Source: an uncultured Thermoleophilaceae bacterium
GTDB taxonomy: Bacteria > Actinomycetota > Thermoleophilia > Solirubrobacterales > Thermoleophilaceae
DNA: 64,000 bases
Direction of reading: 5' to 3'
Assembly (NCBI GenBank): GCA_963716215.1
Contig: OY970298.1
Span: forward strand, 3,508,416-3,572,415
Shown here: one piece after another, positions 10,360 through 54,996 of the stretch
Layout of the letters: each line of letters opens with the position of its first letter
Position numbering within the stretch: the first letter of the stretch is position 1
Translations under genes and position numbers: made by a program
The notes under the pieces: generated by a model
What the model saw: only the letters and a program-made list of their open reading frames with translations
Database searches by the model: none
What the model was told of the DNA's origin: nothing

Positions 10360-10388
10360 TACCGCTACGCCAGGTCCTCGGCCGGGGG

Positions 10389-10394
10389 TACTCT
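10389..10394 (+). promoter_or_regulatory. -10 box candidate TACTCT, 6 nt upstream of GTG 10401 (leaderless)
   Basis: TAnnnT hexamer at a fixed short distance from the start codon. No SD sequence between them. Confidence 0.35.
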
Positions 10395-10400
10395 GGCCCC

Positions 10401-11681: not shown

Positions 11682-11689
11682 GGTAAGGC

Positions 11690-13136: not shown

Positions 13137-13225
13137 CGTCGCGGCACCTCGGCCCCGGGCGCTCGCGAAGCGGCTTCCCCTCGCGTCCAAGGGGCGAAGC
13201 GTATGGCGCCGCGGGGGCGCCGGGG

Positions 13226-15246: not shown

Positions 15247-15264
15247 TATGCCGAACCGACGGGC

Positions 15265-25706: not shown

Positions 25707-26863
25707 CGGTAGTTGCCGTAGTAGACGAAGCCGAACATGACCAGGGAGCCCGCGAACAGCACGAGCGCGCCGCGCGTGACCGGGCGGCGCCAGAGCGCGC
25801 GCCAGAACAGCAGGATCGAGGCCAGCGTCGCCGCCAGCAGCCCGTAGTAGGCGAAGTCCGCCGCCACCCGGATCGGGGTGCCGATCTCGGCGCCGATCGG
25901 TCGCCTCCCGGACTCGCTGGCGTTGACCCACTCGAGCGCCCAGGAGTCGCCGCGGTTGAGGTTGAGCAGCTTGAGCGGGATCAGCTCGAGCTCGCGGCGC
26001 GGGTTGGAGACCATGTACTCGAGCGCCTCGGAGCGCAGGTTCTTCGCCTCCTCGACCTCCGGGTTGTCGCTCGACCGGCGCCCGATCAGATCCTGGCTGG
26101 CGTAGCTCTGCCCGCCGGTGGCGCCGGGGTTGTGGCCGGACCACAGCGTGGTGCTCGAGTTCGTCGAGAGCGGGATGAACGCGTCCATCACGATCGCGTT
26201 GCGGATCGTCCACGGCGCGATCACGACGGCGAGCATGGCCACCACCACGGCGGCCCGGGCCAGCAGCGCGCGGCGCGGCAGCGCCGGCCACCACGCCGCC
26301 AGCACGACCGGCACCAGCAGCAGCCCCTCGCCGCGCGTGAGCGTGAGCAGGCCGATGGCCGCGCCCAGCGCCACCGCGGAGGAGGGCCGTGGCGGCAGTA
26401 CGGCGAGCAGCAGGAAGAACCCCACCAGCAGGAACGTGTAGAGCGTCTCCGCCAGCAGCACGTCGGTCCAGAGGATCTGGCCCGGCAGCACGGCGAGCAC
26501 GGCGGCCCCGACCAGCGCCTCGCGGCGGCCGAAGACCCTCCGGATGAGCAGGTACAGGAGCGGGACGGTGAGCGTGCCCAGCACCGCGTTGAAGAGCTCA
26601 CCAACTATCTGCTCGTGCGAGCCGGTGAGGCGGAACACGAACGAGAGCACCAGCGGGAACACCGGCGGCCACTGCGCGGTCGGCACACCGGGCACGAAGG
26701 CGAAGCCGTCGCCGTTGGCAAGCGAGTTGGCGGTCAGGCCGTAGAAGAAGGTGTCGTTGAAGACGAACTCGTCGCGCTCCACGGCGAGCACGAGCGCGAG
26801 GCGGAGGGCCAGCGCGAGCCCGCTCAGCAACGCCACCAGGCGCACTTCCTTCGAGCGCCACAT
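25574..26863 (-). CDS. ArnT/PMT-like GT-C glycosyltransferase, type A copy 2
   Basis: 429 aa from the ATG at 26863 (MWRSKEVRLVALLSGLALALRL...). Shares NDTFFYGLTANSLANGDGFA, PGVPTAQWPPVFP, LTRGEGLLLVP, RELELIPLKLLNLNRGDSWALEWVNA and YYGNYRYR with copy 1. Confidence 0.8.
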   Translation of the reverse strand: MWRSKEVRLVALLSGLALALRLALVLAVERDEFVFNDTFFYGLTANSLANGDGFAFVPGVPTAQWPPVFPLVLSFVFRLTGSHEQIVGELFNAVLGTLTVPLLYLLIRRVFGRREALVGAAVLAVLPGQILWTDVLLAETLYTFLLVGFFLLLAVLPPRPSSAVALGAAIGLLTLTRGEGLLLVPVVLAAWWPALPRRALLARAAVVVAMLAVVIAPWTIRNAIVMDAFIPLSTNSSTTLWSGHNPGATGGQSYASQDLIGRRSSDNPEVEEAKNLRSEALEYMVSNPRRELELIPLKLLNLNRGDSWALEWVNASESGRRPIGAEIGTPIRVAADFAYYGLLAATLASILLFWRALWRRPVTRGALVLFAGSLVMFGFVYYGNYRYRVPLEPLMILFAAPLLVRAWDLRASSPDTATAASTTMEISAA

Positions 26864-26868
26864 AACCC

Positions 26869-28089
26869 CTACTCTGCTGCCGCGGCGACCGCGGGGGGCG
26901 TGGCCTGGCGCCGTCGCGAGCCGAGCTCCAGGCGCCCGAGCGGACGCTCGATCAGAACGTAGCTCAGCGCCCCGAACACCATTGCGATGGCCAGCGTGAC
27001 GACCGGCCACGCGACGTAGGAGACGATGCCAGAGGGGGGATCGAAGCCCCAGTCCTTGAGCTGCTCGATCACGGAGAGGTGGTAGAGCAGGATGCCGTAG
27101 GAGATCAGCGAGATGAAGATCAGGGGGCGGTTGTTCAGGAGCCGCCTGGTCACGCCGTGGCGCGCGTCGCCGATGGCGAAGGGCAGGAAGATGAACAGGG
27201 CGATCAGCAGGTTGAGCGTGTGCTCGGCGAAGTACTGGAGGTGGTCGTCGGGGTTGGGGTAGGGGCCGGTGAGGCCGATCTGGGTGCTCACGAACCAGAA
27301 GCTCACCAGCGCGATCGCCAGCCCGAGCGACGGCCAGCGGGCGAACGCCTGGAACGCGCCCGGCAGCGGCGCCTCCCCGGGCTCGGGCCGCGCGCCCGTC
27401 CAGCGCTTGCCGAACCACACGCTGAGTACGGCCAGCGCCATGCCGGGCGCGAGCCAGTCGAAGTAGGCGAACAGGAAGTAGCTGATCCCGTATTCGCCAC
27501 GCAGGCCGGCCAGGTCCACCACGATCCGGTAGACGACGGTGAACGCGATCAGCGCACCGCAGCCCCAGAGCTCGGCCCTGAAGCGCCCCGCCCGGTCGGC
27601 CCCGAAGCGCCGCATGAAAGCGGCGTAGAGCGGCACGAACACGTAGAAGGCGACGAGGATGCAGAGGAACCAGGCGATTGCGATGCCGCCCAGCACCGTC
27701 TCGGGCGAGTAGACCTGCCCGAACAGGTAGTAGGTGGGGATCCCGCGCGCCGTGAAGACCCCCACGCCGGCAGTGGTGATCCACAGCCCTGTGATCGTGA
27801 GCGCCACCCAGTAGGGCGGCACCACCCGCAGGAAGCGGTTGCGCGCGTAGCGCTTGAGGTCCGGCGGCGGCCGGTCGTCGAGCCGCGAGCGCGCGTACGG
27901 CCGGTAGATCAGGAAGGCCGACAGCATCATGAAGACCGCGATCGTGAACTCGAAGCGCGTCGTGTAGGGGTGCAGCGTCGCGCTCTGGTGGGCGCCAGAC
28001 GGCCCGAACGTGTGCGCGAGCAGGATCGCGAGCGTCGTCAGCGCCCGCAGGGAGTCGATCAGGGGAAGGCGCCCGGCGGCCGAGCTCAT
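26869..28089 (-). CDS. acyltransferase family 3 (AT3) membrane O-acyltransferase
   Basis: 406-aa ORF with RLPLIDSLRALTTLAILLAH..., LSAFLIYRPY, RFLRVVPPYW and a YGILLYH motif near the C-terminus. Confidence 0.85.
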   Translation of the reverse strand: MSSAAGRLPLIDSLRALTTLAILLAHTFGPSGAHQSATLHPYTTRFEFTIAVFMMLSAFLIYRPYARSRLDDRPPPDLKRYARNRFLRVVPPYWVALTITGLWITTAGVGVFTARGIPTYYLFGQVYSPETVLGGIAIAWFLCILVAFYVFVPLYAAFMRRFGADRAGRFRAELWGCGALIAFTVVYRIVVDLAGLRGEYGISYFLFAYFDWLAPGMALAVLSVWFGKRWTGARPEPGEAPLPGAFQAFARWPSLGLAIALVSFWFVSTQIGLTGPYPNPDDHLQYFAEHTLNLLIALFIFLPFAIGDARHGVTRRLLNNRPLIFISLISYGILLYHLSVIEQLKDWGFDPPSGIVSYVAWPVVTLAIAMVFGALSYVLIERPLGRLELGSRRRQATPPAVAAAAE

Positions 28090-28132: not shown

Positions 28133-30157
28133 CTAGGAGGCGCCGATGAGCTCGGATTCGGGCCGCCTGCGGGCCGCTTCTCCGCGCTCGGCCCCGGCCC
28201 GCAGCTGCCGCCGCCCGAGCAGGAACGCCAGCCCGTAGAGCACGGCCACGAGCACCACCAGCGCCCGGTAGCCCGTCAGCAGCGAGGCGTACTCGAGCAG
28301 GCCGCCGACCATCGCCCCGAGCAGGTTCGCCCCGAACGCCGTCGTCGACGAGCTGGTGTCGGCGAAGCGCTGCGAGAAGACCAGGTTGGCGAGGAAGATC
28401 GGCAGGAACGTGATCCCCGACGCGACGATGAAGCGCGGCACCGGCGCCAGCGCGAGCAGCGAGTCCGGAGCGACGAAGTAGGCAGGCACGAGCCCGGCCA
28501 GCAGGACCGCGTAGAGCACCTGCGGCCGCGGCAATCGCACGCGGCGCGCCGTCTCGACGGCGGCCAGCACGGTGATCAGGATGCCCGCGAACACCAGCGC
28601 GTTGACGAGCCAGGTGGTGCCGAACAGCAGCGCGAACTGCACGACGCTCTTGGTCTCGAGCAGCAGGAACGCCGCGCCCATGAAGAAGAGGTCGGCGTAG
28701 GCGAACATCGGGCGCAGGCGCCCGGCCGCGGCGCGGATCGCGACCACCGAGGCGAGCAGGATCGCCAGGATCGTGGCGAGGTAGAAGCCCGGGATGCCCG
28801 GCTCGCGCAGGTACGGGAACGGGTGGTCGTCGGTGGACGGCTCCGGGACGGGCGTGGTGGCGGTGGCCCAGCGCGTGTCGCATCGGAGCGAGGCGGGATT
28901 GCGGCTGGTCGTGAGCACCGCCAGCCGCCCCTCGCCCCCGAAGCTGTCCACGCACGGCGGCCGCCCGAACGCCTCGGCGAGCGTGTTGGCGTAGCGGTCG
29001 ATCAGCCACTGCTCGCGGTAGTAGTTGTACATCGCGAACACCCCGTTCGGAGTGAGGTGGTCGCGCACCGCTTCGATGGCCTGCTTCGTGAACAGGTAGC
29101 TCTCGAGCCGCAGCGACGACTGGCCGGCCACGAGCGTCAGCGAGTCCGGCAGGGCGAGCAGGATGCGGTCGTAGTGCTCGTCGGAGCGCTCCAGGAACGC
29201 GCGGCCGTCCGTGATGTGCACGTCCACGCGCGGATCGGAATAGGGCTTGTCGGGGTGCAGCTCGCGGCCGAGCTCGTACAACCGCCGGTCGATCTCGACC
29301 GCGTCCACGTGGCCGGCCCCCTGGGCGAGCGCGATCGCCACGTCGTTCCCGCTCCCGGCGCCGATGATGAGCACGTTGTCCTTGGGGACGCCGGGGGCGG
29401 TGCGCTCGTACGGGCGGGCGTAGAGCGGGTTGCGCGTGGACGGCAGGATCACCTGGTGCGGGATGCCGTTCACGCTGATCTCGGGGGGCGAGTCCGGCTC
29501 GTCCTCGTGGCGGTCGATGGTGACCTTGTAGTAGGGCGACCAGTGCGTGTCGGGCTGCACCGACTCCACGGCCAGGAGCGCCACGAGCGCCACGAGCGCC
29601 ACGCCACCGACGATCCGCAGCCGTCGGCCCAGCAGCACGGCGAAGATGACTGCCACGACCACCCCCCACGCCACCGGCGGCAGGCTCAGGAACGACAGGC
29701 CCGCGAAGGCGACCACGCCGAGCAGCGAGCCGAACAGGTCGAGCCGGTAGGCGTCGAGCGCCCGGAAGCGGGCGAAGGTGCGCGCCACGCCCTCGCCGAT
29801 GAAGGCCATCGTCGCCGCGACGGCCACGAAGATCACGGTCAGCGTCAGCCATCGCGGCGGCCCCTCGCTCTGGAGCTCGCCGAAGTAGATGATCCCCTCG
29901 GCCGAGCGCCGGATCTCGACCGGGAACACGAGCACGAACACCACCAGCAGGACGAGCGCGACGGGCGCTAGCGGGAACAGGTCGCGCTCGCGGCTGGCGC
30001 GCAGGAACCCGAGTCCGATCCCGAGGAACGACCCCAGCAGGACGAAGTTCGAGAAGTACGACAGGTAGACGATGTTCGAGCCCGTCCAGCGGATCAGCGC
30101 CAGCTCGACGAAGAGCATGAGGAAGCTGAGGAGGACTAGCCGGCGCTTGTCTGACAT
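28133..30157 (-). CDS. polytopic membrane protein with central spermidine-synthase-fold (class I MTase-like) domain
   Basis: 674-aa ORF. N-terminal ~200 aa hold several TM helices (LLSFLMLFVELALIRW...). The centre has VLIIGAGSGNDVAIALA...VEIDRRLYELGRE...ITDGRAFLERSDEHYDRILLALPDS (SpeE-like GxGxG / D / DGR motifs). The C-terminal ~200 aa are again multi-TM. Confidence 0.75.
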   Translation of the reverse strand: MSDKRRLVLLSFLMLFVELALIRWTGSNIVYLSYFSNFVLLGSFLGIGLGFLRASRERDLFPLAPVALVLLVVFVLVFPVEIRRSAEGIIYFGELQSEGPPRWLTLTVIFVAVAATMAFIGEGVARTFARFRALDAYRLDLFGSLLGVVAFAGLSFLSLPPVAWGVVVAVIFAVLLGRRLRIVGGVALVALVALLAVESVQPDTHWSPYYKVTIDRHEDEPDSPPEISVNGIPHQVILPSTRNPLYARPYERTAPGVPKDNVLIIGAGSGNDVAIALAQGAGHVDAVEIDRRLYELGRELHPDKPYSDPRVDVHITDGRAFLERSDEHYDRILLALPDSLTLVAGQSSLRLESYLFTKQAIEAVRDHLTPNGVFAMYNYYREQWLIDRYANTLAEAFGRPPCVDSFGGEGRLAVLTTSRNPASLRCDTRWATATTPVPEPSTDDHPFPYLREPGIPGFYLATILAILLASVVAIRAAAGRLRPMFAYADLFFMGAAFLLLETKSVVQFALLFGTTWLVNALVFAGILITVLAAVETARRVRLPRPQVLYAVLLAGLVPAYFVAPDSLLALAPVPRFIVASGITFLPIFLANLVFSQRFADTSSSTTAFGANLLGAMVGGLLEYASLLTGYRALVVLVAVLYGLAFLLGRRQLRAGAERGEAARRRPESELIGAS

Positions 30158-30166
30158 GGGCTGGAG

Positions 30167-30180
30167 GGCCAGGACTGGCC
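30167..30180. promoter_or_regulatory. 6-2-6 inverted repeat GGCCAG-GA-CTGGCC in the divergent control region
   Basis: Lies in the predicted 38-nt 5' leader of the minus-strand SpeE-like gene. Could be an operator or an RNA hairpin. Confidence 0.3.
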
Positions 30181-30195
30181 TCGCGGGAGCGGGTC

Positions 30196-30201
30196 ACCCT
30201 A
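30196..30201 (-). promoter_or_regulatory. -10 box candidate TAGGGT(G) for gene 28133..30157
   Basis: Minus-strand TAGGGTG, 38 nt upstream of ATG 30157. Mirror image of the plus-strand box at 30228. Confidence 0.3.
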
Positions 30202-30227
30202 CCGATGCCGCCTTCAGGCGACGCCGC

Positions 30228-30233
30228 TAGGGT
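30228..30233 (+). promoter_or_regulatory. -10 box candidate TAGGGT(G), 8 nt upstream of ATG 30242 (leaderless)
   Basis: CTAGGGTG. The same heptamer occurs at 39734 and, on the minus strand, at 30196. Confidence 0.35.
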
Positions 30234-30241
30234 GCCCGCGC

Positions 30242-32608
30242 ATGGTGGAGCGCGCACCGGCCCGCGTACTGCTCGCGATTGGACTCGTTGCGGGGTGCAC
30301 CCTGGCCCTCCAAGTGCTGCTTACGCGGCTGTACGCGGCCGTGCTCTTCTACCACTTCGGGTTCCTCGCGATCTCGCTCGCGCTGCTCGGGACGGGCGCC
30401 GGCGCGATTGCCGTGTACGTACGGCCGGCCTGGTTCGAGCAGGTGTCGCTGAACGCGATGTTGGCGCGTGCCTCGATCGCGTTCGCGCTGCTGCTGGCGC
30501 TGGTCCCGCTGGTGCTCGTGAGGCTCGACTACTCGTTCGCCGACACGGTCACGCCAGGGTTCGTGGCGAACCTCGCCGCCGCGTGCGCGCTGTCGGCGAT
30601 CACGTTCCTGGCCGGCGGGATCGCGATCGCGCTAGCGATCAAGGCCTACGCCCGCAGGGCCGGGCGCGTATACGCGGCGGACCTCGCGGGGGCGGCGATC
30701 GGCGCGTTCGTGGCCGTGCCGTTCATGTGGAGCGTGCCGGTGCCGACGCTGCTGGTGGGGCTCGGCGTGCCGGCGGCGCTGGCCGCTTGGCTGGTGGCGG
30801 ACCCCCGCCGGCCGGAGCGCCGGATGGCCCTGGGCGCTGCGCTCGTGGCGGTCGCTGTGGTCGTGCTCTCCGAGACGACCGCGGCCACGCACGTCAAGCC
30901 GTTCACGCGCGTGTCGGGGGCCGAGCCGGTGTCGGACCGCTGGACGCCGCTGAACCGGGTCGTCGGCTATCCGCCGCCGAACGGCCGGGGCTCGCTGGCC
31001 TACGTGTTCTACGACTCCATCTACGCCCCCGCGATGGTGCGCCGGCCCGGAGAGCCGATGCCGGACTGGGAGCCGCTGCGCCTGGGTCCGCAGAGCATCG
31101 GCTACGCGCTGACCGGCCCGGGTAGCGCCCTGGTGATCGGCGGAGGCGGCGGTCGCGACATCCTCAACGCGCTCTCGTCGCGTCAGCGCCAGGTGGACGT
31201 GATCGAGCTCAACGAGGCGATCCGCGAGGCGGTCGACGAGGACCTGCGTCCCTGGACGGGGGCGCCGTACAGCCTCCCGGGCGTCGACGTGACGGTCGGC
31301 GACGGGCGCTCGACCCTGGCCGCCAGCGACGAGCGCTACGACCAGGTGCACATCGGCTTCACCGACACCCTGAGCGCCAACTCGGCCCAGGCGTTCGCGC
31401 TCACCGAGTCCAACCTGTACACGCTCGAGGCCTTCGACGAGTACCTCGACCACCTCGCCCCCGGCGGCGTGCTGAACGTCTCCCGCCTGCGGCGGCTGGT
31501 CGGCGACGAGGCGCTGCGGGCGACGGTGCTCACGCTGGAGGCGCTCCGCCGCCACGGCGTCGAGAACCCGTCGCGCAACGTCGTGGTGATCCTGGGCGAG
31601 GACTTCTTCGACGGCGAGTTCGGCACGGTGCTCGCTCGCATGGAGCCGTTCACGCCGAGCGAGCTGGCCCTGGTGCGGCGACTCGCGGACGAGCGCGGCC
31701 TCGGCGTGGCCTACGCGCCGGGTGGGCCATACCGCAAGGAGTGGGCCGGCCTGGGTACCGCGTCGAGCCCGCTCGAGTTCTGCCGCTCGTACCGCCTCGA
31801 CGTCTGCCCGCCGACCGACGACAAGCCCTTCTTCTTCAACATGCGACGGCTGTCGGACGTGGGCTCGTCGGAGGCCGACGGCTACTTCTACTCGATCGAT
31901 CCGGTGCTGGTCCTGCTCGCCACGCTGCTCGTGCTCGTGGTGCTCTCGGTGTTCGCCTTCCTGCTGCCGCTGCTGTTGGTGCGCGGCCCGCGCCGCCCGC
32001 CGGCCCGCTCGCTGGTGCTGTTCGCGGCGATCGGCCTCGGGTTCCTGGTACTCGAGGTGTCGCTGGTGCAGCGCTTCGTGCTGTTTCTCGGCTTCCCGAC
32101 CTACGCGCTCTCCGTCGTCCTGTTCGCACTGCTCCTGTTCGCGGGGCTGGGGGCGTTCCTGAGCGCCCGGTGGACCCGGCCGCGGCACGCGCTCACGCTC
32201 ACGCTCTCGCTCGCGCTGGCGCTGATCCTGGCCGCGGCCTTCGCCCTCGAGCCGCTGCTCGACGCGCTGATCGGGTTGCCCTTCGGGCTGCGCGTGGCCA
32301 CCGCGATCGCGGTGCTCGCCCCGTTCGGGCTCACGCTCGGCACCGCGATGCCGGTCGGCCTCGCCCGCATCGAGGAGCTGCATCCGGGCGCCACGCCGTT
32401 CGCCTGGGGGCTGAACGGCATCATGTCGGTCGTCGCCTCGGTGCTGGCCGTGGCGGTGGCGATCTCGTTCGGGTTCAGGGCCACCACGCTCGTCGCATTC
32501 GCCTGCTACGCCGTGGCGCTCGGCGACGTAGTGCTCGGCCGCTGGCCGGGCACGGCCGAGGTCGAGGAGCGCGCCCCAGTGGCGGGCCTCGAGCCGGCGC
32601 GCCCGTAG
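30242..32608 (+). CDS. polytopic membrane protein with central spermidine-synthase-fold domain (paralog of 28133..30157)
   Basis: 788-aa ORF with a multi-TM N-terminus. The centre has ALVIGGGGGRDILNAL...VIELNEAIREAV...VGDGRSTLAASDERYDQVHIGFTDT. C-terminal multi-TM region (LGFLVLEVSLVQRF...GLNGIMSVVASVLAV). Confidence 0.75.
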   Translation: MVERAPARVLLAIGLVAGCTLALQVLLTRLYAAVLFYHFGFLAISLALLGTGAGAIAVYVRPAWFEQVSLNAMLARASIAFALLLALVPLVLVRLDYSFADTVTPGFVANLAAACALSAITFLAGGIAIALAIKAYARRAGRVYAADLAGAAIGAFVAVPFMWSVPVPTLLVGLGVPAALAAWLVADPRRPERRMALGAALVAVAVVVLSETTAATHVKPFTRVSGAEPVSDRWTPLNRVVGYPPPNGRGSLAYVFYDSIYAPAMVRRPGEPMPDWEPLRLGPQSIGYALTGPGSALVIGGGGGRDILNALSSRQRQVDVIELNEAIREAVDEDLRPWTGAPYSLPGVDVTVGDGRSTLAASDERYDQVHIGFTDTLSANSAQAFALTESNLYTLEAFDEYLDHLAPGGVLNVSRLRRLVGDEALRATVLTLEALRRHGVENPSRNVVVILGEDFFDGEFGTVLARMEPFTPSELALVRRLADERGLGVAYAPGGPYRKEWAGLGTASSPLEFCRSYRLDVCPPTDDKPFFFNMRRLSDVGSSEADGYFYSIDPVLVLLATLLVLVVLSVFAFLLPLLLVRGPRRPPARSLVLFAAIGLGFLVLEVSLVQRFVLFLGFPTYALSVVLFALLLFAGLGAFLSARWTRPRHALTLTLSLALALILAAAFALEPLLDALIGLPFGLRVATAIAVLAPFGLTLGTAMPVGLARIEELHPGATPFAWGLNGIMSVVASVLAVAVAISFGFRATTLVAFACYAVALGDVVLGRWPGTAEVEERAPVAGLEPARP

Positions 32609-32618
32609 GCTGGCCGCG

Positions 32619-34568
32619 ATGTCACCGGTCGCGCACCACGTCGTGCTCGGGCTCGCGATCGCGGCTCTGGGCGGCGCCGGGCTGCGCCTCGCGTCGCTGG
32701 CGGCCCCCAGGGGGCCGGAGCGCGCGGTGGCCGCCGTGGTCATCGCCGCGTCGATCGCGGCACTCGAGGCGCTTGCGCTCGGCCTCGTGAGGCTGGGTAC
32801 GAACACCGCGGCGCTCGCCGGCGCCGCCGCGCTCACGTGGGTGCTGGCGCGCACCCTCCTGCCGGCCCCGGCCTCACCGCCGGGGAGCGAGCTGGCGGCG
32901 GCCTGGCGCGCGGCCTCGCCCGGCCGCCGGGTGGCGCTGGGCGCGGTCGCGGGCGTGTGGCTGGCCTGGGCGGTGTGGCTGCTGCGCTATCCGGCGCTCG
33001 GCATCGACACGGTGGCCTACCACCTGACCGACGTCGTCGCCTGGGTGGGCGACGGCAGCCCGGGCGCGATCGAGCCGCTGTTCCCCAACGTGCCGGTCGG
33101 CAACTACCCGCTCACCAACGAGGTGCTGCTGGCCTGGGGCACCGGGATAGCGCGGAGCTTCGTGTTCGTCGGCCTCTGGGCGCCGGCGATGATGGCGCTG
33201 CTCGTGGTGGCCGGGTGGGGCGCGCTGCGCGCCGTGCGCGTCCCGGTGGGCGCCGCCGCGGCGGCGGTCGCGGCCCTCTGCGTGCTGCCCGTGCTCACGC
33301 ACTACCAGCAGAACGGCGCGAACACCGACATCCCCGCGTTCGCCTGGCTCGTGAGCGCCGCGTTCTTGTCGCTGGCGTCGGCACGGCGCCCGGCGCTGAT
33401 CGCGCCGGCCCTACTCGCCGCCGCGCTCGCCGTCGGCACGAAGACGACGACGCTCCCGCTGGCCCTGCTGGTGCTGGTGCTCGCGCTGGTGGGAGCCCGG
33501 GGGGAGCTGCGCCGGCTAGCGTGGCCGCTGGCGCTGGCGGGCGCCGCGGCGGTCGCGATCGGCGGCTACTGGTACCTGCGCAACCTGGTCGACCACGGCT
33601 CGCCCTTCTGGCCCTTCGTCGAGACCCCCTGGAGCGACCCGCTGCCGAAGGAGATCGGGCCAGAGCGGGGCGTGAACGCCAGCTTCCTCGACCACCCGCG
33701 CTTCACGCTCGAGCGGGTCGGCGACGAGTGGCTCGACCTGTTCGGCGGCGGCTTCTTCCTGCTGGCCGCGGCGTTCGTGGCGCCGCTGCTGGCTCGCGAC
33801 CGGCGCGTGACGGCCGCGGCGGTCGTGACGGCGGTCTCCGTGCTGATCTGGATGAACGCGCCGTTCACAGGCGCCTCGGTGCGTGAGTACGAGGTGGCCA
33901 CGGCCTCGACGGTCCGCTACCTGATCCCCGCGCTGGGCGCGGCCGTCTTCACGCTGGCGCTGGCGGCCACCTCGGCGAGCCTGGCGGCGCGCCGGTTCGC
34001 GGTGCTCTCGCTCGGGGCGGGGTTCGTGGTGAACCTGGTGCAGACCGCCGACCTCGGCTTCCCGAGCGTGCCGCGGGCGTGGGTGCCGCTCGCCGGGGCC
34101 GCGGTCGGCGCCGCCGTCGCCGCACTGGCCGGGCGGGTGACGGCGCGCCCGCCCACGCTGCCCGCCGCAGCGCGGACGCTGCTCACGGCGCTCGCGTGCG
34201 CCGCTGTGGGCGCGCTCACCGCCATCGGGGCCGCCGGCTTCGTGGAGCGCCATGCGCAGACGGCGGACCTGTACGGCACGGACACGATCCGCTGGTTCAC
34301 CGAGCAGCCGGAGTTCGACGACGGCGACGACCCGATCTGGGCGGCGCCCGTCAATCTGGCGCCGCTGGGCGGCGACCGGCTCCAGCACGAGTTCCGCTGG
34401 ATCGAGGACGACGCGCCCTGCTCGCTGGTGCGGGCGCGAGCCCGGGCGAGCTGGGTGATCGTGATCATGTTCCCGCCCGACGGGAGGCTGCTGTCGCCGA
34501 GCGGCCGCTGCCTCGAGAACCAGCGCCCGGCCCACAAGGGCGCCGGCTTCAGCGTCTACAGGGGCTGA
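32619..34568 (+). CDS. unrecognised ~650-aa polytopic GT-C-like membrane protein, paralog 1
   Basis: 649-aa intact ORF with ~12 TM segments. Motifs conserved across the paralogs: LEALALGLV, GIDTVAYHL, NEVLLAW, HYQQNGANTDIPAFAWL, GTKTTTLPL, GGYWYLRNLVDHGSPFWP, WMNAPFTG, GDRLQHEF. Soluble C-terminal domain with a Cys pair, ending GAGFSVYRG. Confidence 0.7.
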   Translation: MSPVAHHVVLGLAIAALGGAGLRLASLAAPRGPERAVAAVVIAASIAALEALALGLVRLGTNTAALAGAAALTWVLARTLLPAPASPPGSELAAAWRAASPGRRVALGAVAGVWLAWAVWLLRYPALGIDTVAYHLTDVVAWVGDGSPGAIEPLFPNVPVGNYPLTNEVLLAWGTGIARSFVFVGLWAPAMMALLVVAGWGALRAVRVPVGAAAAAVAALCVLPVLTHYQQNGANTDIPAFAWLVSAAFLSLASARRPALIAPALLAAALAVGTKTTTLPLALLVLVLALVGARGELRRLAWPLALAGAAAVAIGGYWYLRNLVDHGSPFWPFVETPWSDPLPKEIGPERGVNASFLDHPRFTLERVGDEWLDLFGGGFFLLAAAFVAPLLARDRRVTAAAVVTAVSVLIWMNAPFTGASVREYEVATASTVRYLIPALGAAVFTLALAATSASLAARRFAVLSLGAGFVVNLVQTADLGFPSVPRAWVPLAGAAVGAAVAALAGRVTARPPTLPAAARTLLTALACAAVGALTAIGAAGFVERHAQTADLYGTDTIRWFTEQPEFDDGDDPIWAAPVNLAPLGGDRLQHEFRWIEDDAPCSLVRARARASWVIVIMFPPDGRLLSPSGRCLENQRPAHKGAGFSVYRG

Positions 34569-34576
34569 CCTGACGA

Positions 34577-36521
34577 ATGTCGAGCTTCGTCGAAAACGCG
34601 GTGCTGGTCCTGTCGGTGGCGGCGCTGGCGGCCGCCGGGGTGCGAGCGGCCTCCCAGCTCGCCCCGGCCGGGCTGGAGCGCGCAGTCACGGCGGCCACCT
34701 TCGCCACCGCTGCGGCCGGGCTCGAGGCGCTCGCGCTGGGGCTGGTGGGGCTCGGGGGCGACACGGTCCCGCTCGCGCTGGCCGCCGCCGCCACCTGGGC
34801 GCTCGCCCTGGCCGTGTTCCCCGCGCCGCGCGTCCCGCTGCTCGCCGAGGTGAGCGGCGCGTGGAGGGAGGCCCCGCCCGCCGCACGTGCCCTCGTGGCC
34901 GCCGTCGCCGGTGCTGGCACCGCGTGGGCGGCCTGGCTCGTGCACGTGCCGGCGCTCGGGTACGACAGCGTCAACTACCACCTGCCCGAAGCCGTCATCT
35001 GGGTGCGCGACGGCAACCCCGGCGCGGTCATCCCGGGGATCCTCGACTCCGTCACCTACCTGCCGCTGATGAGCGAGGTGCTGCTCGCCTGGGGAGTGGG
35101 CATCTCCCGCAGCCTCGTGCCGGCCTCGCTGCTGGCGCCCGCCTCGATGCTGCTGCTGGCCGTGTCGGGCTGGCTGGGGCTGCGCACACTCCGTGTCGGG
35201 CGCGTGGCGACGGCGGTGGCGGTGGGCACGCTCTGCGCGGCGCCGATGGTCACGCACTACCAGATGAACGGCGCCTACAACGACCTCCCGGCGCTGTCCT
35301 GGCTGGTCGCGGCCGGCGCGCTCGCCGCGGCCTCGCGGCGCAACCCCGCCATGCTGGCTCCGGCGCTGCTGGCCGCGGCGCTCGCGGCCGGCACCAAGAC
35401 GACCGCGCTGCCGCTGTCGCTGTTCGTGCTGGTGCTGGCGGCGTGGCCGCATCGGCGCCGGCTGCGCCCGCTGGCGCTGCCGCTGGCGCTCGCGGGCGGC
35501 GCGGCGCTGGTGGTCGGCGGGTTCTGGTACGCCCGCGACTTCGTGGTGCACGGCTCGCCGTTCTGGCCGGACGTTGCCGCCCCGTGGGGCGACGCCACGC
35601 CGGTCGAGTCGCCGAGCTTCCTCGACCGGCCGCGCGAGACCATCGACCGCTTCCTCGACGACTACCTCGAGCTGTTCGGTGGCGGCCTGCTGGCGATCGG
35701 TGGCGCGCTGGCGGTGCCCTTCGCCACCCGCGACCGCGCCGTGTGGGTGGCCGGCGCCGCGACCGCGGTCTCCTTCCTGCTGTGGCTCAACGCGCCCGCC
35801 ACCGGAGCGGCCGAGGGCGGCTCGGTGGTGGGCACGCTGTCGACCGTCCGCTACGTGCTGCCCGCGCTGGCGGCCGCGACCGTCACGCTGGCCCTGGCCA
35901 CGCGCAACACGCGGCCTGGCGGGCCGGGCCGCCGGGCTGATCCTGGCGGCGGCGCTGGTGATCAACGTGCTGCAGACGCGCGCGCTCGGCTATCCCAGCG
36001 TGCCGGGCGCTCACGTGCTGGCGCTGGGCGCGCTGCTCGGCGCGGGCGCCGCCCTTGCGGCCGGGGCGCTGTCGGCGCGCCTGCCGGCCGTGCCCCGCTG
36101 GGCCGTCGCGGCTGCCGGCGTTGCGGTGCTGGCCGCCGCGGCCGGTGCGCTCGCCGTGGGCACGAGCGGGTACGTCGAGCGTCACGCCCGCGCCAACGAG
36201 CACACCGTCTACCCCTACGTGGGGATGGTGAGCTGGCTGGCGGAGCAGCCGCTCTACCGCAGCGGCGACGACCCGGTGGCGATCGTGCCGATCCCGAACG
36301 GCGTCGTCGTGGGCGACCGGCTGCGGCACCGCATCGAGGTGGTGCCGTTCGAGGAGCCGTGCGACGCGGTGCGCGCGCGGCTGCGGGATCACTGGGTGCT
36401 GTTGAACTTCCTCGACGTGGTGCGCGACTTCACCGCCGCCCGCTGCCTGGAGGACGTGAAGCCGACCTTCGAGGGCTCGGGCTTCCGCGTCTACCGGCCC
36501 TCGGGCGCCTCGCCGCCGTAG
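34577..36521 (+). pseudogene. unrecognised GT-C-like membrane protein, paralog 2, frame disrupted near 35911-35916
   Basis: The N-terminal frame (track ORF 34577...) is homologous to paralog 1 up to ...TVTLALATRNTR. Homology then continues in the frame of track ORF 35574..36521 (LAGRAAGLILAAALVINVLQTRALGYPSVP...GSGFRVYRPSGASPP*). This is a 1-nt indel or an error. Confidence 0.7.
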
Positions 36522-38459
36522 ACCTCGAACTCGCCGCCCTGCCACCGCGGCGTGAGCTTGGCGTAGCACGGCGGGTTGGGCCAGGAGCGGTTGACGATCA
36601 CCCACCCCTTGCGCAGGTGCTCCCGCACCTCGCGGCACGTGTCGAGCGCGTCGACCAGGTCGATCCGGTGCTGGAGCCGGTCGCCCGCCAGCGCCGCGTT
36701 CATCACGACCGAGAAGGCGACCGGGCTGTCGCCGTCCACCCACTCGGGCTGCGAGAGGAACCAGTCGAACATCGCCGGGGCCGCCGAGGCGAACTTGTTG
36801 GACTCGGAGACGTTGGCCACGTTGAAGCGCTGGACGAACCCGGACGCGGCCACGGACAGCAGCAGCCCGACGACCACGATCGCCGGCACGGCGGCAAGGC
36901 GCGCCAGGCGCGGCCAGTCGCCGCGTCGCGGCAGGAGCGCCGCGACGCCGACAAGGGCCGCCCCGCCCAGCGCACCGGCCAGGACGATCGCCACCGGCGG
37001 CGCGCTCGGGTAGCCGAGGTCGAACAGCTGCCAGGCGGTGAACCCGAGCGCCAGGGTCAGCGCCCCCACGGCATACGGCCGACCGTACGGGCGCTCCCGC
37101 GCGGCCAGGCAGATCGTGAGGGCCGCGACCGTGAAGGTCGGCAGCAGGTAGCGCACCGTGGTCAGCGCGCTGGAGCCCGCGTCGCCCTCGGAGATCCCGG
37201 TGAAGGGCGCGTTCATCCACAGCAGCAGGGACAGGACGGTGACCGCGGTCGAGGCGAGCACCGCCCGGGTCCGGGTCGCGAGCGGCGCGAGCAGGGCGCC
37301 GCGCGATCAGCAGGTAGCCCCCGGCGAACGGCTTGGCCCAGTCGCTGAGCAGGAAGTCGGCCGTCCGGCGGGGGGCGTCGAAGAAGCGGGTGTAGACCTG
37401 CTCCACCACGTCACCCGACGGCGCGATCACCTCGGGCACCGGGTCGCCCCACGGCGTGGCCACGAACGGCCACAGCGGCGACCCGTGCAGCACCAGGTTG
37501 CGCAGGTACCAGTAGCCGCCCACCGCCAGCCCGACGCCGCATGCCACGGCGAGCGGGCGCCACAGGGCGCCCAGCCGGTGGCGGTGGACCACCGCCGCGA
37601 TCGCCAGCACCAGCAGCCCCAGCGGCAGCGTCGTGGTCTTGGTGCCGATGGCCAGGGCCGCGGCGAGCACCACGCCGGTCAGAAGCTTGGGCCGGCTGAC
37701 CGACGCGGCGCAGAGGGCTGCCGCGCAAACGAGCCACGCCAGCGCCGGGAGGTCGGTGTGGGCGCCGTTCTTCTGCCAGTGCGTGAGCGGCGGCATCAGG
37801 CAGAGGGTCAGCACGGCAAGCCCGGCCGGCAGGCGCGGCACGCGCAGGGTCCGCAGGCCGGTCCAGCCGGCCGTGGCCAGCAGCGCCAGCGTCACCGGCG
37901 CCCACACCATCACCGGCACGAAGCTGCGCGAGAGCGCGCTCGACCACTCCAGCAGCACCTCGTTCGTCACCGGGTACGCGCCGACCGGATAGCCGGGGAA
38001 CAGCCCGGAGACCGAACCCGGGCGGCCGTTGTGGATCCACTCGACCACCTCGGGGACGTGGTAGATCATGCTGTCCGCGCCGAGGATCGGATGGCGCACC
38101 AGCCAGACCGTCCAGACCAGCCAGGCGCCCGCGCCCGCCGCCAGCGCCACGCGCGGCGCGATCGGCGCGCTCGCCCACCAGCCGAGGAACTCCTCGCGCG
38201 CCGGGGTGCCCACGTCCGGAGCGAGCCTGCGCGCGACGAGCCAGGTGAGCACCGCGGCCAACGCGAGCGCGATCGTGCTCCCGCCCAGGCTGACGAGCCC
38301 GAGGCCCAACGCCTCCAGCGCCGCGAGCGCGGCGCCGAACACGGCGGTCGCCACCACTCGCGGCAGCCCGGCGGCACCCGTGAGCGTGGCCACCCGGAAG
38401 CCGGCGCCGGCCAGAGCGGCGACCGCGACGACGAACGTGATCTGGTGGATGACCGTCAA
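36491..38459 (-). pseudogene. unrecognised GT-C-like membrane protein, paralog 3, frame disrupted near 37298-37304
   Basis: TTG start at 38459 (TTGA overlap with the AT3 stop): (M)TVIHQITFVVAVAALAGAGFRVATL... is homologous to paralogs 1 and 2 up to ...FAGGYLLIA. It then continues in the frame of track ORF 36491..37261 (GALLAPLATRTRAVLASTAVTVLSLLLWMNAPFTG...GGEFEVYGG). Confidence 0.7.
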
Positions 38460-39643
38460 GCCGCGACCCGGGCGGGTCCGTCCGCCTTGTCCGGCGCGCG
38501 CCGACCGCCGCGGAAGTCCTTGAAGCGGAGGATCGGGCGCTCGACGACGTAGTAGCTGCCCGCGGCGCACAGCGTGGACACGACCAGCGCACACACCAGC
38601 AGCGGCACCCACGCGTAGTCGAGCTTCGGCGCCAGGACGCGGATGATCTCGAAGTGCCAGAGGTAGAGCCCGTAGGAGACCAGGCCGAGCCAGGCCAGCC
38701 ACCGCAGCCCGAGCACGCGGCGCGGCCAGCCACCGGCGCCCTCCCCGAACACGGCCGGGAGGATCAGGAACAGCGCCACGACGCCGCGCAGCACGTGCTG
38801 GGCCAGCAGCTGCTCGTCCGAGTAGACGGTGTGCTGAGGCGCGCTGGTGAGGACCGCGCCGAGCACCAGATAGGCGACGAGCGCGATCGCCCAGCAGGTC
38901 CCGGGCCGGTCGGTCACGAGCTGCGCGAGCCGGGGCGCGCGGGCGCGGTCCTGCCACGCCACGCTCAGCACCGCCAGCGCCATCCCGAGCGCGAACCAGT
39001 AGAGGTGCGTGGGCAGGCTGTTGCTCAACACCACGTCGTCGGTGACCGCGCGCAGCGTCACCGAGCCGAGCGCGATCAAGGCGAGCACCACGAGCTGCAC
39101 GCGCACCCGCACCGCCGCGTCGCGCCCCCTGGTCGCGTACGCGGTGGCGATGGCGAAGAACGGCAGCACGACGTAGAAGCTCGCCTCGATGCACAGCGTC
39201 CACGCCACCGGGATCCCCGTGAGCGTGGTGATCGGGTCGTAGATCTGCAGCAGCCCGTAGTAGCTCCACCAGTCGGGGCCCCAGAGCCCCACGAGCCCCG
39301 GGTAGATCGCCAGCACGGTGAGTGCGAGCCAGTAGGCGGGGATGATGCGCAGCACCCGCCGGCGCGCGTAGTCGCGCAGGCGTGGCTGCGACTTGTGGTG
39401 CAGCTGGGCGTTGAAGAACGGCCGGTACAGGAGGAAGCCCGAGAGCAGGAAGAACAGGCACACCCCCACGCTGAGGTTGCCGATCCAGGCGCCGTAGGCC
39501 TGCTCGCGCGTGTTGCCCGACAGCGACCCCACGTGTCCGAACAGGACTCCCAGTGCGGCCACCGCGCGCAGCGAGTCCATCAGCGGGAAGCGCGGGTTCC
39601 CAGGGGGCGGCGCGACGACCGGAGGCGCCGTGTGGGCGGACAT
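38456..39643 (-). CDS. acyltransferase family 3 (AT3) membrane O-acyltransferase
   Basis: 395-aa ORF with RFPLMDSLRAVAALGVLFGH, LLSGFLLYRPF, RRVLRIIPAYW and YGLYLWH. Confidence 0.85.
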   Translation of the reverse strand: MSAHTAPPVVAPPPGNPRFPLMDSLRAVAALGVLFGHVGSLSGNTREQAYGAWIGNLSVGVCLFFLLSGFLLYRPFFNAQLHHKSQPRLRDYARRRVLRIIPAYWLALTVLAIYPGLVGLWGPDWWSYYGLLQIYDPITTLTGIPVAWTLCIEASFYVVLPFFAIATAYATRGRDAAVRVRVQLVVLALIALGSVTLRAVTDDVVLSNSLPTHLYWFALGMALAVLSVAWQDRARAPRLAQLVTDRPGTCWAIALVAYLVLGAVLTSAPQHTVYSDEQLLAQHVLRGVVALFLILPAVFGEGAGGWPRRVLGLRWLAWLGLVSYGLYLWHFEIIRVLAPKLDYAWVPLLVCALVVSTLCAAGSYYVVERPILRFKDFRGGRRAPDKADGPARVAA

Positions 39644-39752: not shown

Positions 39753-42126
39753 ATGTCGATTTCGACCGACAGCCGCGTCGCGCGCCTGGCTGGAGCGCCG
39801 CGAGTACCTGGCCGCGACGGCGATCCTCGGCCTGATCACGTGCCTGTGGTTCTGGCCGCTGCTGATCGGCGAGCAGCTCGGGCAGAGCTTCATCCTGCAT
39901 CAGTTCGCACCGTGGCTGGGCGGCGTGGACCCCGCCTCGCTGCCGCGCCGCGGACCGTTCGTGGACGCGGCGGTGGCGTTCCACCCGTGGGCGGAGGTGG
40001 CGCGCGACCAGGTCCTCGCGGGCCACCTGCCGCTGTGGAACCCGTCGGAGTGGGCCGGCATGACGCTGGTGGGCAACATGCAGTCGGCGCTGTTCTTCCC
40101 GCCCAGCTGGCTGCTGATCGTGTTCCCGTTCGGCTACGGGTGGGGCGTCTTCTCCGCCGTCAAAGTGCTGCTGTCGGGGCTCGGGGCCTACGCCCTCGCG
40201 CGCGAGCTGGGAGTGGGCCGCGGCGGCGCGCTGGTCGCAGGTGCCGTGTACATGCTGTCCGCGCCGCTGATGCTGTGGCTGCAGTACCCGCTCGGCAGCG
40301 TCTTCGCGATCTTCCCGTGGCTGCTGTGGGCAACCACCCGACTCGCCAGGCGCCCCACACGGGCTTCGATCGCGGCCGTGGCGCTCACGACCGCCCTGAT
40401 GCTGTTCGCCGGGCACCCGGAGTCGGCGTTCATCGCGGTGTCGGCGATCGCCGTGTACCTGGTGGCGCTGGTTGCCTTCGACCACCGGGCGAACCCGGAG
40501 GGCTCACGCCCGCTGCGGATCGCCGTGCGGTGGGCGGCCGGCGGGCTGCTCGGCGCGGCGATCGCGGCCGTGGCCCTGATCCCGTTCCTGCTCGCGCTCG
40601 GCGACAGCGTCACCTGGGGCGAGCGCGGCAAGCTGATCCCGGCCGACGCCCCGTCGCTCGCCGACCTGCTGCAGTGGGCGATGCCGGGGCTGTTCGGGGA
40701 CGGTGAGCCGAACCTGTACGGCAGGTGGCCGTTCGGCTACTTCGGGCTGCCCGCGCTGATCCTGGCGTTCGTGGGGCTCGTCCGCTACCGCCGCGAGGCG
40801 GGTGCCCGTGCGCTGCTGGCGATGACGGCCGTCACGTTCCTGGCGATTTACCGCGTGCCCCCGGTGCGCTGGCTGCTGGAGGAGGTCCCGCCATGGGCGA
40901 ACACCTACCTGGGGCCCGAGCGGCTCTACTTCGTGATCGCGCTGGCGGGCGCCGTCGGCGCCGGCGCCGGCTTCCACGCGCTCGCCCACCGGCCCCTGCC
41001 GCTGCGCCGCGTCGTCGTGGTGACCGCCGCGGCGGCGCTCGTGATCGCGGTCGGCGCCGGGCTGGCCCAGGTGGCGGGCGACCTGGGCGCGCCCGCCTCG
41101 GTGAAGCGCGAGAGCATCGCCGTCACGGCGCTGCTGCTGCTTGTGACCGGCGGCCTGCTGGCGGCCGTCGGCCGGGTCCGTCCCGTGACGGCTGCGGCGG
41201 CGGCGCTGGCGGTGGCCGTGCTGAGCCTGGTCGGGATGCAGAACTTCAACCTCACCCTGCCCCCTGACGAGGCCTACCCGGCCACTCCGGCGGGGATCGC
41301 CCAGCTCCAAGACCAGCCGGGAACGTTCCGAGTCGGCGTGTTCCGCGCCAGCGGCGCCGAGCTGACGATGCCCGCGAACACGGCGGGCCTGTACGAGCTC
41401 GAGAGCATCGAGGGCTACGACTATCCGCTGTCGCGGCGGTGGTCCGACTTCCAGTCCGGCGTGCTCGGTTTCGGCGGCTCGGCCTTCCCGGAGCTGCGGA
41501 CCGCCCAGGAGCCGCCGCGCGGGCCCGCCCTGGCCGCGCTGCGGATGATGAACGTGCGGTACTACGTGGGCGCGCCCGGCACGCGCGCCGAGTCGCCGGA
41601 CTTCCAGACCGTCTACAGCGGGCGCGACAGCGTGGTGCTGCGTGACCGCCAGGCGCTGCCGCGCGCGTACGTGGCGCCGGTCGCGCGTCCGCTGTCGGAC
41701 GACGACGCCCTGGCGCTGCTCGAGCGGGGTGGGCTCGACCCGCGCCGCGAGGCGCTCGTGCCGGAGGGCGAGCAGGCGCCCGCCGGAGGCGCGTTCCGCG
41801 CCGCGCGCGTGGAGGTGCTCGCCCCCGACCACGTGCGGGTGCACGTGCCGCGCGGAGCGGCGGGCTGGCTGGTGCTGGCCAACGGGTACTCGCCGGACTG
41901 GAAGGCCGAGGTCGACGGGCGCGAGACCGAGCTGCGGCCGACCAACTTCGCCGCGATGGGCGTCCCGGTGGAGAGCGGGACCGAGGTCGTGGACTTCCGG
42001 CTCGACCGCACCGGGCTCTGGCTCGGCGCCGCGATCAGCCTGATCGCGCTTGCGTGCGCTGGGCTGCTCTTGGTGAGCGGCAGAGCGCGATCACGTCGAG
42101 GGCCTGCTCCAGACCCTCGGACCTGA
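39753..42126 (+). CDS. YfhO-family polytopic membrane glycosyltransferase, copy 1 (N-terminus uncertain; possible 1-nt frame disruption at ~39775-39795)
   Basis: Track ORF 39925..42126 matches the YfhO family (HPWAEVARDQVLAGHLPLWNPSEWAGMTLVGNMQSALFFP...). The same frame is open and paralog-conserved upstream to 39790 (LERREYLAATAILGLITCLWFWPLLIGEQLGQSF) with no ATG/GTG/TTG in it. The nearest ATG (39753, behind a -10 box) is in the -1 frame. Confidence 0.7.
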
Positions 42127-42823
42127 GCTCGAAGTCGTCCACCGTGATCGCCCCCGCGCCGGGGTGCGGGTGCTCGCGCTCGGTGGTTAGGCGCCGGTCG
42201 TAGAGTCGCTGGAGGACCGTGCGTGGGACGAACCGGCGCAGCCGCAGCGGGTCCTTGCGCAGCAGCGCGTCGAGCTTGAGGCGCTCACCGGAGACGAGCT
42301 CGAGATAGCGCTCCGACCCGAACAGCCCGTGCATCTCGACCCTCTCGAAGTACGGCTCGCAGGCCGCCCGCAGCTGGGTGTGGTCGTACTCGACGTAGTG
42401 GTACGGGTCGATGATCTCGTCGGGGCGGGCGAAGGTGAGCCGGTTGGGGGTCACGAAGATCGCGGTGCCCTCCGGTTCGAGCACTCGCGCGATCTCCTCG
42501 AGCACGCGCCGGTGGTCGGGCACGTGCTCGATCGACTGCACCGACAGCACCGCGGCGAAGCTGGCGTCGCCGAACGGGATCTCGCGCATGTCGGCCACGA
42601 CCGTCTCGCGCTGCTGTCCCGCGAGCGCTTCGGGGTCCAGGTCGAGCCCGACGCTCTCGCGCGGCGCCAGCTCGCTGAACGAGTGCCCCACGCCGCAGCC
42701 GAGGTCCAACACCCGGCCGTCCGGCAGCAGCGGCGCGCACAGCCGGTAGGCCGCCACGTGGCGCTGCCAGGTCGGGTTGAAGCCGCCGGCGGGGGTGGAT
42801 ACACGCTCGCCGGTGACCGTCAC
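42035..42823 (-). CDS. class I SAM-dependent methyltransferase
   Basis: 262-aa ORF with VLDLGCGVGHS motif I and SVQSIEHVPDH. GTGA overlaps the upstream GT2 stop. Confidence 0.85.
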   Translation of the reverse strand: MTVTGERVSTPAGGFNPTWQRHVAAYRLCAPLLPDGRVLDLGCGVGHSFSELAPRESVGLDLDPEALAGQQRETVVADMREIPFGDASFAAVLSVQSIEHVPDHRRVLEEIARVLEPEGTAIFVTPNRLTFARPDEIIDPYHYVEYDHTQLRAACEPYFERVEMHGLFGSERYLELVSGERLKLDALLRKDPLRLRRFVPRTVLQRLYDRRLTTEREHPHPGAGAITVDDFELRSEGLEQALDVIALCRSPRAAQRTQARSG

Positions 42824-48134: not shown

Positions 48135-48141
48135 GGCGGGC

Positions 48142-48148
48142 TAGGCTA
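48142..48148. promoter_or_regulatory. overlapping back-to-back -10 boxes in GCTAGGCTAGC (TAGGCT on +, TAGCCT on -)
   Basis: The minus-strand box is 8 nt upstream of GTG 48134 (leaderless). The plus-strand box is 27 nt upstream of ATG 48175, which has a GGGGAGAA SD. The whole intergenic region is only 40 bp. Confidence 0.35.
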
Positions 48149-48174
48149 GCGGGCCTCGTGGGGAGAACCGCCGC

Positions 48175-54991: not shown

Positions 54992-54996
54992 GGCGG

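Follow-up and report, generated by a model that had tools for sequence, protein, structure and literature searches.

What is a run of six genes, all of them for multi-pass membrane proteins, doing in the genome of an uncultured Thermoleophilaceae bacterium? The run occupies positions 28133-39643 (11.5 kb, hereafter the block) of the window, by which we mean the whole stretch of 64,000 nucleotides (nt) that was analyzed, and it codes for two proteins with a spermidine synthase (SpeE) fold, three paralogs of ~650 amino acids (aa) and an AT3 acyltransferase. We propose, with a probability of roughly 60%, that the block forms the central part of an extensive locus rich in paralogs (at least ~45 kb), which builds and decorates an envelope glycan outside the cytoplasmic membrane of a Thermoleophilaceae-like host. 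Each of the ~650-aa proteins, which have the fold of the GT-C glycosyltransferases, would transfer a sugar from a polyprenyl-phosphate carrier to a glycan at the outer side of the membrane. A PpgS/AglJ-like family 2 glycosyltransferase (GT2) encoded at 42820-43626 is the probable enzyme that charges this carrier in the cytoplasm, and an ArnC/PgfS-like GT2 at 48175 possibly does so as well. The AT3 proteins, which belong to a recognized acyltransferase family, would bring acyl groups through the membrane to be used in O-acylation, and an outward-facing SpeE-fold domain may methylate an exported substrate, as the fungal enzyme NHMT does.

Coding regions were judged by the periodicity of the G+C content at third codon positions (GC3); in this window of ~72% G+C, true genes are recognizable by a GC3 above 0.9. 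Six coding regions with strong GC3 periodicity fill the block, and their positions, order and strands agree with those given by the sequence-only reading. SpeE1, on the minus strand (28133..30157; 674 aa), and SpeE2, on the plus strand (30242..32608; 788 aa), diverge from an intergenic spacer of 84 nt (30158..30241); each has 14 transmembrane (TM) helices and a SpeE-fold domain between TM7 and TM8, at about residues 199-457 in SpeE1 and residues 213-555 in SpeE2. SpeE2 is the first gene of a plus-strand run that continues, after a gap of 10 nt, with paralog 1 (Par1, 32619..34568; 649 aa, intact, with a GT-C fold) and, after a gap of 8 nt, with paralog 2 (Par2, 34577..36521; ~648 aa after repair). 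On the minus strand, the stop of the AT3 gene (38456..39643; 395 aa, without an SGNH domain) overlaps the TTG start of paralog 3 (Par3, 36491..38459; ~656 aa after repair) in the sequence TTGA, such that the two are translationally coupled. Par2 and Par3 are convergent and their 3' ends overlap by 31 nt. Both gaps and the TTGA coupling had been described exactly, and the three ~650-aa proteins are paralogs as had been claimed, with pairwise identities of 45-48% when Par2 and Par3 are repaired; as open reading frames (ORFs) of that length, only Par1 is intact, and Par2 and Par3 each carry one 1-nt frameshift in the sequence as written.

The AlphaFold2 model of Par1 (pLDDT 91.3, predicted TM-score 0.93) is what reveals the nature of this family. 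Its top 12 Foldseek matches in the PDB were all GT-C enzymes (ArnT 5f15, STT3 of yeast and human, ALG12 and ALG3), with probabilities of 0.98-1.0, which bears out the label "GT-C-like" that the proteins had been given. Eight residues are invariant across the family: D130, Y134, H135, E168, D237, K275, C601 and C631. The first four lie in a loop that follows the TM helix at 101-123 and that contains two non-hydrophobic, amphipathic juxtamembrane helices, at 129-145 and 166-178. The positive-inside pattern places both the D130 loop and the C-terminal alpha/beta domain, with the invariant C601 and C631, outside. The D130 loop is thus a candidate equivalent of extracytoplasmic loop 1 (EL1) of the GT-C enzymes, with D130 as the conserved acidic residue that is expected in the first long extracytoplasmic loop of a GT-C protein. 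Par1 had no Pfam match at E ≤ 10, and a precomputed PF26626 assignment exists for some members of the family. Matches to MFS_1 and Nitrate_red_gam on fragments of Par2 and Par3 were discarded as sub-threshold, the Par2 fragment being in addition partly out of frame. All 74 genome loci of the family, in a collection of species-representative genomes, come from Thermoleophilia (metagenome-assembled genomes, MAGs, of Thermoleophilaceae and Solirubrobacterales). The model and the conserved residues fit an uncharacterized family of GT-C glycosyltransferases whose active site would face outward, found here only in Thermoleophilia.

We then looked at what accompanies the family in other genomes, in 53 loci, each 15 kb or longer, that surround members of the ~650-aa family, with three close relatives (L001, L003 and L023) left out and partners counted at a distance of up to 10 kb. 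An orthologue of the GT2 at 42820 (65-85% identity, at a median gap of ~1 kb) was present in 29/53 loci, an orthologue of the methyltransferase at 42035 in 24/53 and any AT3 in 23/53. The conserved core is therefore the GT2, with its methyltransferase, plus the GT-C protein, and the frequency of the GT2 suggests that the GT-C paralogs probably use polyprenyl-phosphate-linked donors. In one locus (L016) the GT-C family gene and a methyltransferase-GT2-methyltransferase operon are transcribed in divergent directions. The next gene downstream of that GT-C gene is for a DUF772 transposase (L016 11917-12900), which fits the view that decoration genes are mobile or variable between genomes. Another locus (L158) holds three tandem ~650-aa paralogs together with PMT_2, AftD-like, AT3 and methyltransferase genes, and no SpeE-like gene. 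There, on a complete Thermoleophilaceae chromosome of 2.8 Mb, the tandem paralogs are directly followed by the AftD-like GT-C (6134-16218), and a fourth paralog is found 4 kb upstream. It was also observed that the PpgS/AglJ-like GT2 is often flanked by one or two S-adenosylmethionine (SAM) methyltransferases, a Methyltransf_23 protein upstream and one of type 11 downstream (L016 8124-9930; window 42035-43626 and 47250-49143); these methyltransferases beside the GT2 may act on the lipid-linked sugar donor itself.

Such a composition is that of the known three-component systems, among them GtrABC of Salmonella and Shigella phages, ArnC/ArnT and the mycobacterial pair PpgS (Rv3631)/Rv3779. The same three-component logic of extracytoplasmic glycosylation underlies the GT136 pentofuranose system (PMC11127046). 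Like these systems, the window combines a small cytoplasmic GT2 resembling polyprenyl-phosphate-sugar synthases with multi-pass GT-C proteins, whose first outer loop contains an acidic residue and whose C-terminal domain faces outward. Unlike them, it contains a GT-C family that is unrelated in sequence to the curated families and is arranged as tandem paralogs, it shows no recognized dedicated flippase, and its GT2 usually has one or two SAM methyltransferases as immediate neighbors. The AT3 of the block (38456-39643), the presence of which had been called correctly, matches PF01757 at 98.9 bits against a cut-off of 31 (E 3.8e-28) and has an R26-x10-H37 motif in the segment LRAVAALGVLFGH; the R-x10-H motif of the first TM helix is reportedly known from work on OafA/OafB. 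It resembles the O-acyltransferases OafA/OafB, Oac and mycobacterial SucT in belonging to PF01757, in having ~10 TM helices with R-x10-H in TM1, and in lying in a glycan locus, and it differs from them by the absence of a fused SGNH domain and by the fact that AT3 proteins here adjoin, or are fused to, a SpeE-fold protein. The sequence-only reading knew of no characterized system of this composition; we find that the block fits the scheme of polyprenyl-phosphate-sugar synthase, GT-C protein and AT3, and what is of most interest in it is the predicted outward-facing SpeE-fold, methyltransferase-like domain together with its link to AT3.

Could two of the three GT-C paralogs be dead? Par2 has a single 1-nt frameshift at ~35,910-35,920, supported by tblastn matches in two frames, the change of GC3 phase and the junction sequence, and the same kinds of evidence place a single 1-nt frameshift in Par3 at ~37,296-37,306. 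Neither lies within a long homopolymer, and no further homology-supported frameshift was found in the window, the rest of which was checked non-systematically by a survey of GC3 phase. These facts would suit a decaying, redundant GT-C array in which Par2 and Par3 are recently inactivated pseudogenes and only Par1 is active. However, GC3 stays at or above 0.95 on both sides of each frameshift and no stop codons accumulate downstream. Moreover, the Par2 orthologue is intact in L003 (82% identity), those of Par3 are intact in L003 and L001 (86 and 88%), and these two related MAGs are broken in other paralogs while L023 is broken many times, the pattern that long-read consensus errors leave. Because GC3 remains so high and the orthologues are intact in MAGs that break other paralogs, the frameshifts are probably errors of assembly, by a leaning of about three to one, and inactivation of the two genes seems to us rather unlikely.

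The most unusual members of the block are the two SpeE-fold proteins. From AlphaFold2 helices and hydropathy, both consist of seven TM helices, a soluble domain of ~260-340 aa and seven further TM helices. SpeE1 matches Pfam Spermine_synth at 3.3e-10. For SpeE2, the Pfam match of spermidine-synthase type reaches only 0.004, under the cut-off; its AlphaFold2 model (pLDDT 87) matches SpeE of Thermus thermophilus (1uir) in Foldseek with an E of 3.8e-9 and a TM-score of 0.63 on the target. Family profiles found the same structure at 1.5e-12 (SpeE2) and 1.8e-14 (SpeE1), such that the fold proposed for both proteins is upheld, by Pfam for SpeE1 and by the PDB profile and Foldseek for SpeE2. In comparison with SpeE (Thermus 1uir/3anx, or the membrane-fused type PRK03612), both have the N-terminal beta domain and both families keep the glycine-rich loop, the acidic residue after strand 2, a D-G motif and the second Asp of D-x-x-D-P.

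Two signature residues of spermidine synthases are gone, however. The acidic residue of GxG(D/E)G, a Glu in Thermus, is replaced by Gly in SpeE2 (GGGGGRD) and by Ser in SpeE1 (GAGSGND), and the counterpart of the Thermus sequence IIDLTDP is IGFTDT in SpeE2-family proteins and LALPDS in those of the SpeE1 family, so that Gly or Ala stands where D-x-x-D-P has its first Asp. This Asp is the catalytic base in SpeE. The GxG(D/E)G acid binds the amine of decarboxylated SAM, and its loss is the criterion by which the fungal NHMT was recognized as a methyltransferase rather than a spermidine synthase (PMC10349129). Since both proteins are without the two residues, the transfer of aminopropyl groups from decarboxylated SAM, which had been suggested for them, is unlikely. 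Scores against the NCBIfam equivalogs were likewise low, 31-43 bits against cut-offs of 249-472. By analogy with NHMT, the SpeE-fold domains are most likely SAM-dependent methyltransferases and not polyamine synthases.

NHMT (AN4663) combines a 7TM region with a SpdS-like methyltransferase domain and methylates secreted lytic polysaccharide monooxygenases (Batth et al. 2023, PMC10349129). Its targets are proteins of the secretory pathway, it needs its TM region for activity, and that region has been described as fungus-specific (PMC10349129). Judged by layout and motif, it appears to be the closest characterized analogue of SpeE1 and SpeE2: these also have seven N-terminal TM helices followed by a SpdS-fold domain that has another residue in place of the GxG(D/E)G acid, and the compartment of the secretory pathway is topologically equal to the outside of a bacterium, the predicted site of the SpeE1 and SpeE2 domain. 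Unlike NHMT, SpeE1 and SpeE2 continue beyond the domain with seven more TM helices, which makes 14 in total. The many invariant polar residues in the TM helices suggest that the membrane parts of the SpeE-fold proteins are more than an anchor. A relation between the N- and C-terminal TM modules of SpeE2 as repeats, considered on account of their similar TM1 motifs, was rejected (hhalign probability 1%), and the idea of MFS-like modules (6+1 and 1+6 helices) is speculation, Pfam scans of 41 members having given no MFS match.

On which side of the membrane the domain lies decides between this view and a more conventional one, in which SpeE1 and SpeE2 would be housekeeping, membrane-anchored polyamine or SAM enzymes with a cytoplasmic domain, present in the locus by chance. 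The catalytic domain of SpeE sits in the cytoplasm, where decarboxylated SAM is made, and both SAM and decarboxylated SAM are cytoplasmic metabolites. Public annotations read spermidine synthase, several homologues stand in contexts without glycan genes, and both families are widespread, at ~60% identity across classes of Actinomycetota: hits to the SpeE1 family exceed 7,700 and extend, at ~62% identity, to Acidimicrobiia, Nitriliruptorales and further Actinomycetota, and with a threshold of E ≤ 1e-30 a profile of 40 SpeE2-family sequences plus SpeE1 (alignment A2) retrieved 5102 clusters, the top 150 being mostly full-length (~800 aa) and the distant SpeE2-like clusters all being named "hypothetical". 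Against a cytoplasmic domain stands the distribution of Lys and Arg, which, when alternate loops are added up, come to 14.2 in inside and 2.3 in outside loops in the SpeE2 family (40 sequences) and to 17.0 and 2.9 in the SpeE1 family (35 sequences) when the domain is placed outside, a bias that holds separately before and after the domain in both families. So do the cysteines: SpeE1-family proteins average only 2.5 each, and the only conserved ones are an invariant pair inside the domain, C401/C425, just as C514/C522 are present in 40/40 SpeE2-family sequences. Such pairs look like structural disulfides of an exported domain. A third line comes from a 1102-aa ORF (P0270) in which a canonical 10-TM AT3 is fused to the N-terminus of a SpeE1 homologue through a linker with ~14 Arg/Lys, on a JGI metagenome contig of 9421 bp with an operon of methyltransferase, PMT_2, GT2, DUF2304 and PMT_2 genes. 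It could be a true fusion or the product of a lost stop codon; the linker puts the N-terminus of SpeE1 inside and therefore the domain, seven helices later, outside. Because the charge bias, the cysteine pairs and the AT3 fusion agree, we predict that the SpeE-fold domain of both proteins faces outward, and with the aminopropyltransferase residues gone as well, and glycan genes near most SpeE1 homologues, a housekeeping role in the cytoplasm is clearly improbable.

Those neighbors are as follows. In the small sample of contexts at hand, which is not corrected for kinship, GT-C, GT2 or AT3 genes accompany the SpeE1 family in 6/8 contexts examined, and in four of these six glycan contexts (the window, L162, L163 and P0270) an AT3 adjoins or is fused to the SpeE1 homologue; in L162 and L163, from organisms that are probably related, the AT3 follows it. 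The real local partner of SpeE1 is the AT3 at 26869-28089, outside the block. We know of no earlier description of an AT3 adjacent or fused to an outward-facing SpeE-fold protein. SpeE2 is only loosely linked to glycan genes: in a set of 48 SpeE2 loci that have 4 kb or more of flanking sequence, any glycan gene occurs in about a quarter and a ~650-aa family gene in 4/48, and two annotated SpeE2 contexts are unrelated to glycans. SpeE1-family genes were also seen in or beside type IV/Flp pilus clusters (L164 5223-11973 and L160 12472-15974), a placement that is either coincidence or a hint at exported proteins, rather than glycans, as substrates. A bolder proposal is that each 14-TM SpeE-fold protein is a complete machine in itself that methylates outside the cell: the conserved polar TM modules would deliver SAM from the cytoplasm to the outward-facing domain, a glycan or exported protein would be methylated there and SpeE1 would be paired with AT3. 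We offer it tentatively and do not expect it to hold in full; if true, it would be the first SAM-dependent route of modification at the outer surface of a bacterial membrane, and a misannotation in wide use would be set right.

The weakest explanation is that of the sequence-only reading itself, that the six genes are a dedicated novel system in which the GT-C proteins add a sugar, AT3 acylates it and the SpeE-fold proteins add an aminopropyl group from decarboxylated SAM: the operon-like spacing (10 nt, 8 nt, TTGA), the retention of the arrangement in L001, L003 and L023 and the position of SpeE2 directly beside a Par gene in a handful of less closely related loci (such as L028, L117 and L127) speak for it, but outside these close relatives (83-94% identity), the only genomes to keep the six-gene set, a SpeE1 homologue accompanies the GT-C family in 0/53 loci and a SpeE2 homologue in 5/53, Par genes are as rare in SpeE2 loci, the residues for binding decarboxylated SAM and deprotonating the amine are gone in both proteins, and the block borders cut neighboring operons, so that it is very improbable and, by the co-occurrence counts, largely refuted. 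The left border probably splits a minus-strand operon that runs from SpeE1 through the AT3 (26869-28089) to a PMT_2-like GT-C, and the borders as a whole are arbitrary, a slice through neighboring operons of the larger locus. The six genes are a lineage-specific neighborhood and no conserved six-part machine, to which the claim of a novel system has to be downgraded. Of the joint action on a lipid-linked or surface glycan that had been proposed, the glycan role remains plausible, given the GT-C fold, AT3 and the SpeE1 contexts, and the unit of six does not.

Several points weigh against our preferred explanation of the block as part of an envelope-glycan locus with outward-facing enzymes. The Foldseek TM-scores for ArnT are modest (0.42/0.49). 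The ~650-aa family lies below all curated Pfam and NCBIfam cut-offs, with LIC_10190_fam at 21-35 bits against 100, WsfD at 17.7 against 80 and, in one homologue, PMT_2 at 23 against 26.1; its sequence profile found nothing in the PDB at E ≤ 10, so that its kinship is visible only by fold comparison. No flippase was recognized within or adjoining the block. The smallness of the SpeE1 and SpeE2 sample counts here too, and homologues of both also occur in unrelated contexts (L075, L076, L161 and L164). The operon-like spacing of SpeE2, Par1 and Par2 argues for some local functional link among these three. Finally, the outward topology is a prediction, and to our knowledge no route is known by which SAM would reach the outside of a bacterial cell.

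Thermoleophilia are abundant in soil and almost uncultured, and we know of nothing established about their envelope; literature searches for the cell wall of Thermoleophilia and for membrane-bound forms of spermidine synthase returned nothing relevant. The locus shows a heavy investment of this class in GT-C-based decoration outside the membrane, and it defines an uncharacterized GT-C family with a clear candidate donor synthase. The SpeE-fold families comprise thousands of sequence clusters that are mostly labelled spermidine synthase in databases, yet are without the residues for that chemistry. If these proteins do face outward and do not make polyamines, polyamine-pathway inferences drawn from such annotations would be wrong for many Actinomycetota, and bacteria would have a means of using SAM outside the cytoplasm.

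The whole 64-kb window is one envelope-glycan locus. It contains at least 11 genes of GT-C type (three Par, two YfhO-like, about five PMT_2-like and one AftD-like), two Wzx-like flippases, one Wzy_C protein, two GT4-GT2 fusions, two small GT2s, three AT3s, three soluble SAM methyltransferases, two S-adenosylhomocysteine (SAH) hydrolases and a set of sugar enzymes (PMI/PGI-like, NDP-sugar enzymes and UDP-glucose dehydrogenase). That the block holds "not one soluble enzyme", as had been pointed out, is thus an artefact of the chosen borders, which are flanked by the GT2s, the GT4-GT2 fusions, the SAM methyltransferases, the sugar-nucleotide enzymes and the SAH hydrolases. To the left, the AT3 that lies 43 nt downstream of SpeE1 (26869..28089, minus strand; 406 aa, PF01757 4.3e-17) precedes the PMT_2-like GT-C (25574..26866, minus strand, start approximate), the last gene of the probable SpeE1-AT3-GT-C run, which is outside the block as well. 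The latter was recognized by 35% identity at 26015-26770 in a tblastn search with the PMT_2 protein of 43676, within an open frame (25574..27784) in the coding phase indicated by GC3. At the edge of the locus, on the minus strand, are tandem paralogs of SAH hydrolase (298-3027; 424 and 474 aa). The two hydrolases, the three soluble methyltransferases and the two SpeE-fold proteins together suggest heavy SAM turnover at the locus.

To the right of the block come further GT-C genes, a methyltransferase and a GT2. A YfhO/PTPS_related-like GT-C of 733 aa (39925..42126, plus strand) has a 52%-identical paralog at 45016-47274. It is followed on the minus strand by a soluble class-I SAM methyltransferase (42035..42823; Methyltransf_11 5.4e-20), whose gene overlaps by 4 nt the upstream GT2 gene (42820..43626, minus strand); this GT2 belongs to the class of polyprenyl-phosphate-sugar synthases and is similar to AglJ, PpgS and Dol-P-hexose transferases, with NCBIfam matches of 4e-24 and 2e-22 that are under the curated cut-offs. 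A second pair of donor synthase and transferase is formed on the plus strand by the PgfS/ArnC-like GT2 (48175..49143) and an AftD-like GT-C of 1419 aa with a carbohydrate-binding module (49153..53412), which places an AftD-like GT-C beside an ArnC/PgfS-like GT2 in a non-mycobacterial actinobacterium. Beyond it, on the minus strand, 53399-58178 has a strong coding signal in three successive phases and includes a 625-aa ORF without a Pfam or NCBIfam match.

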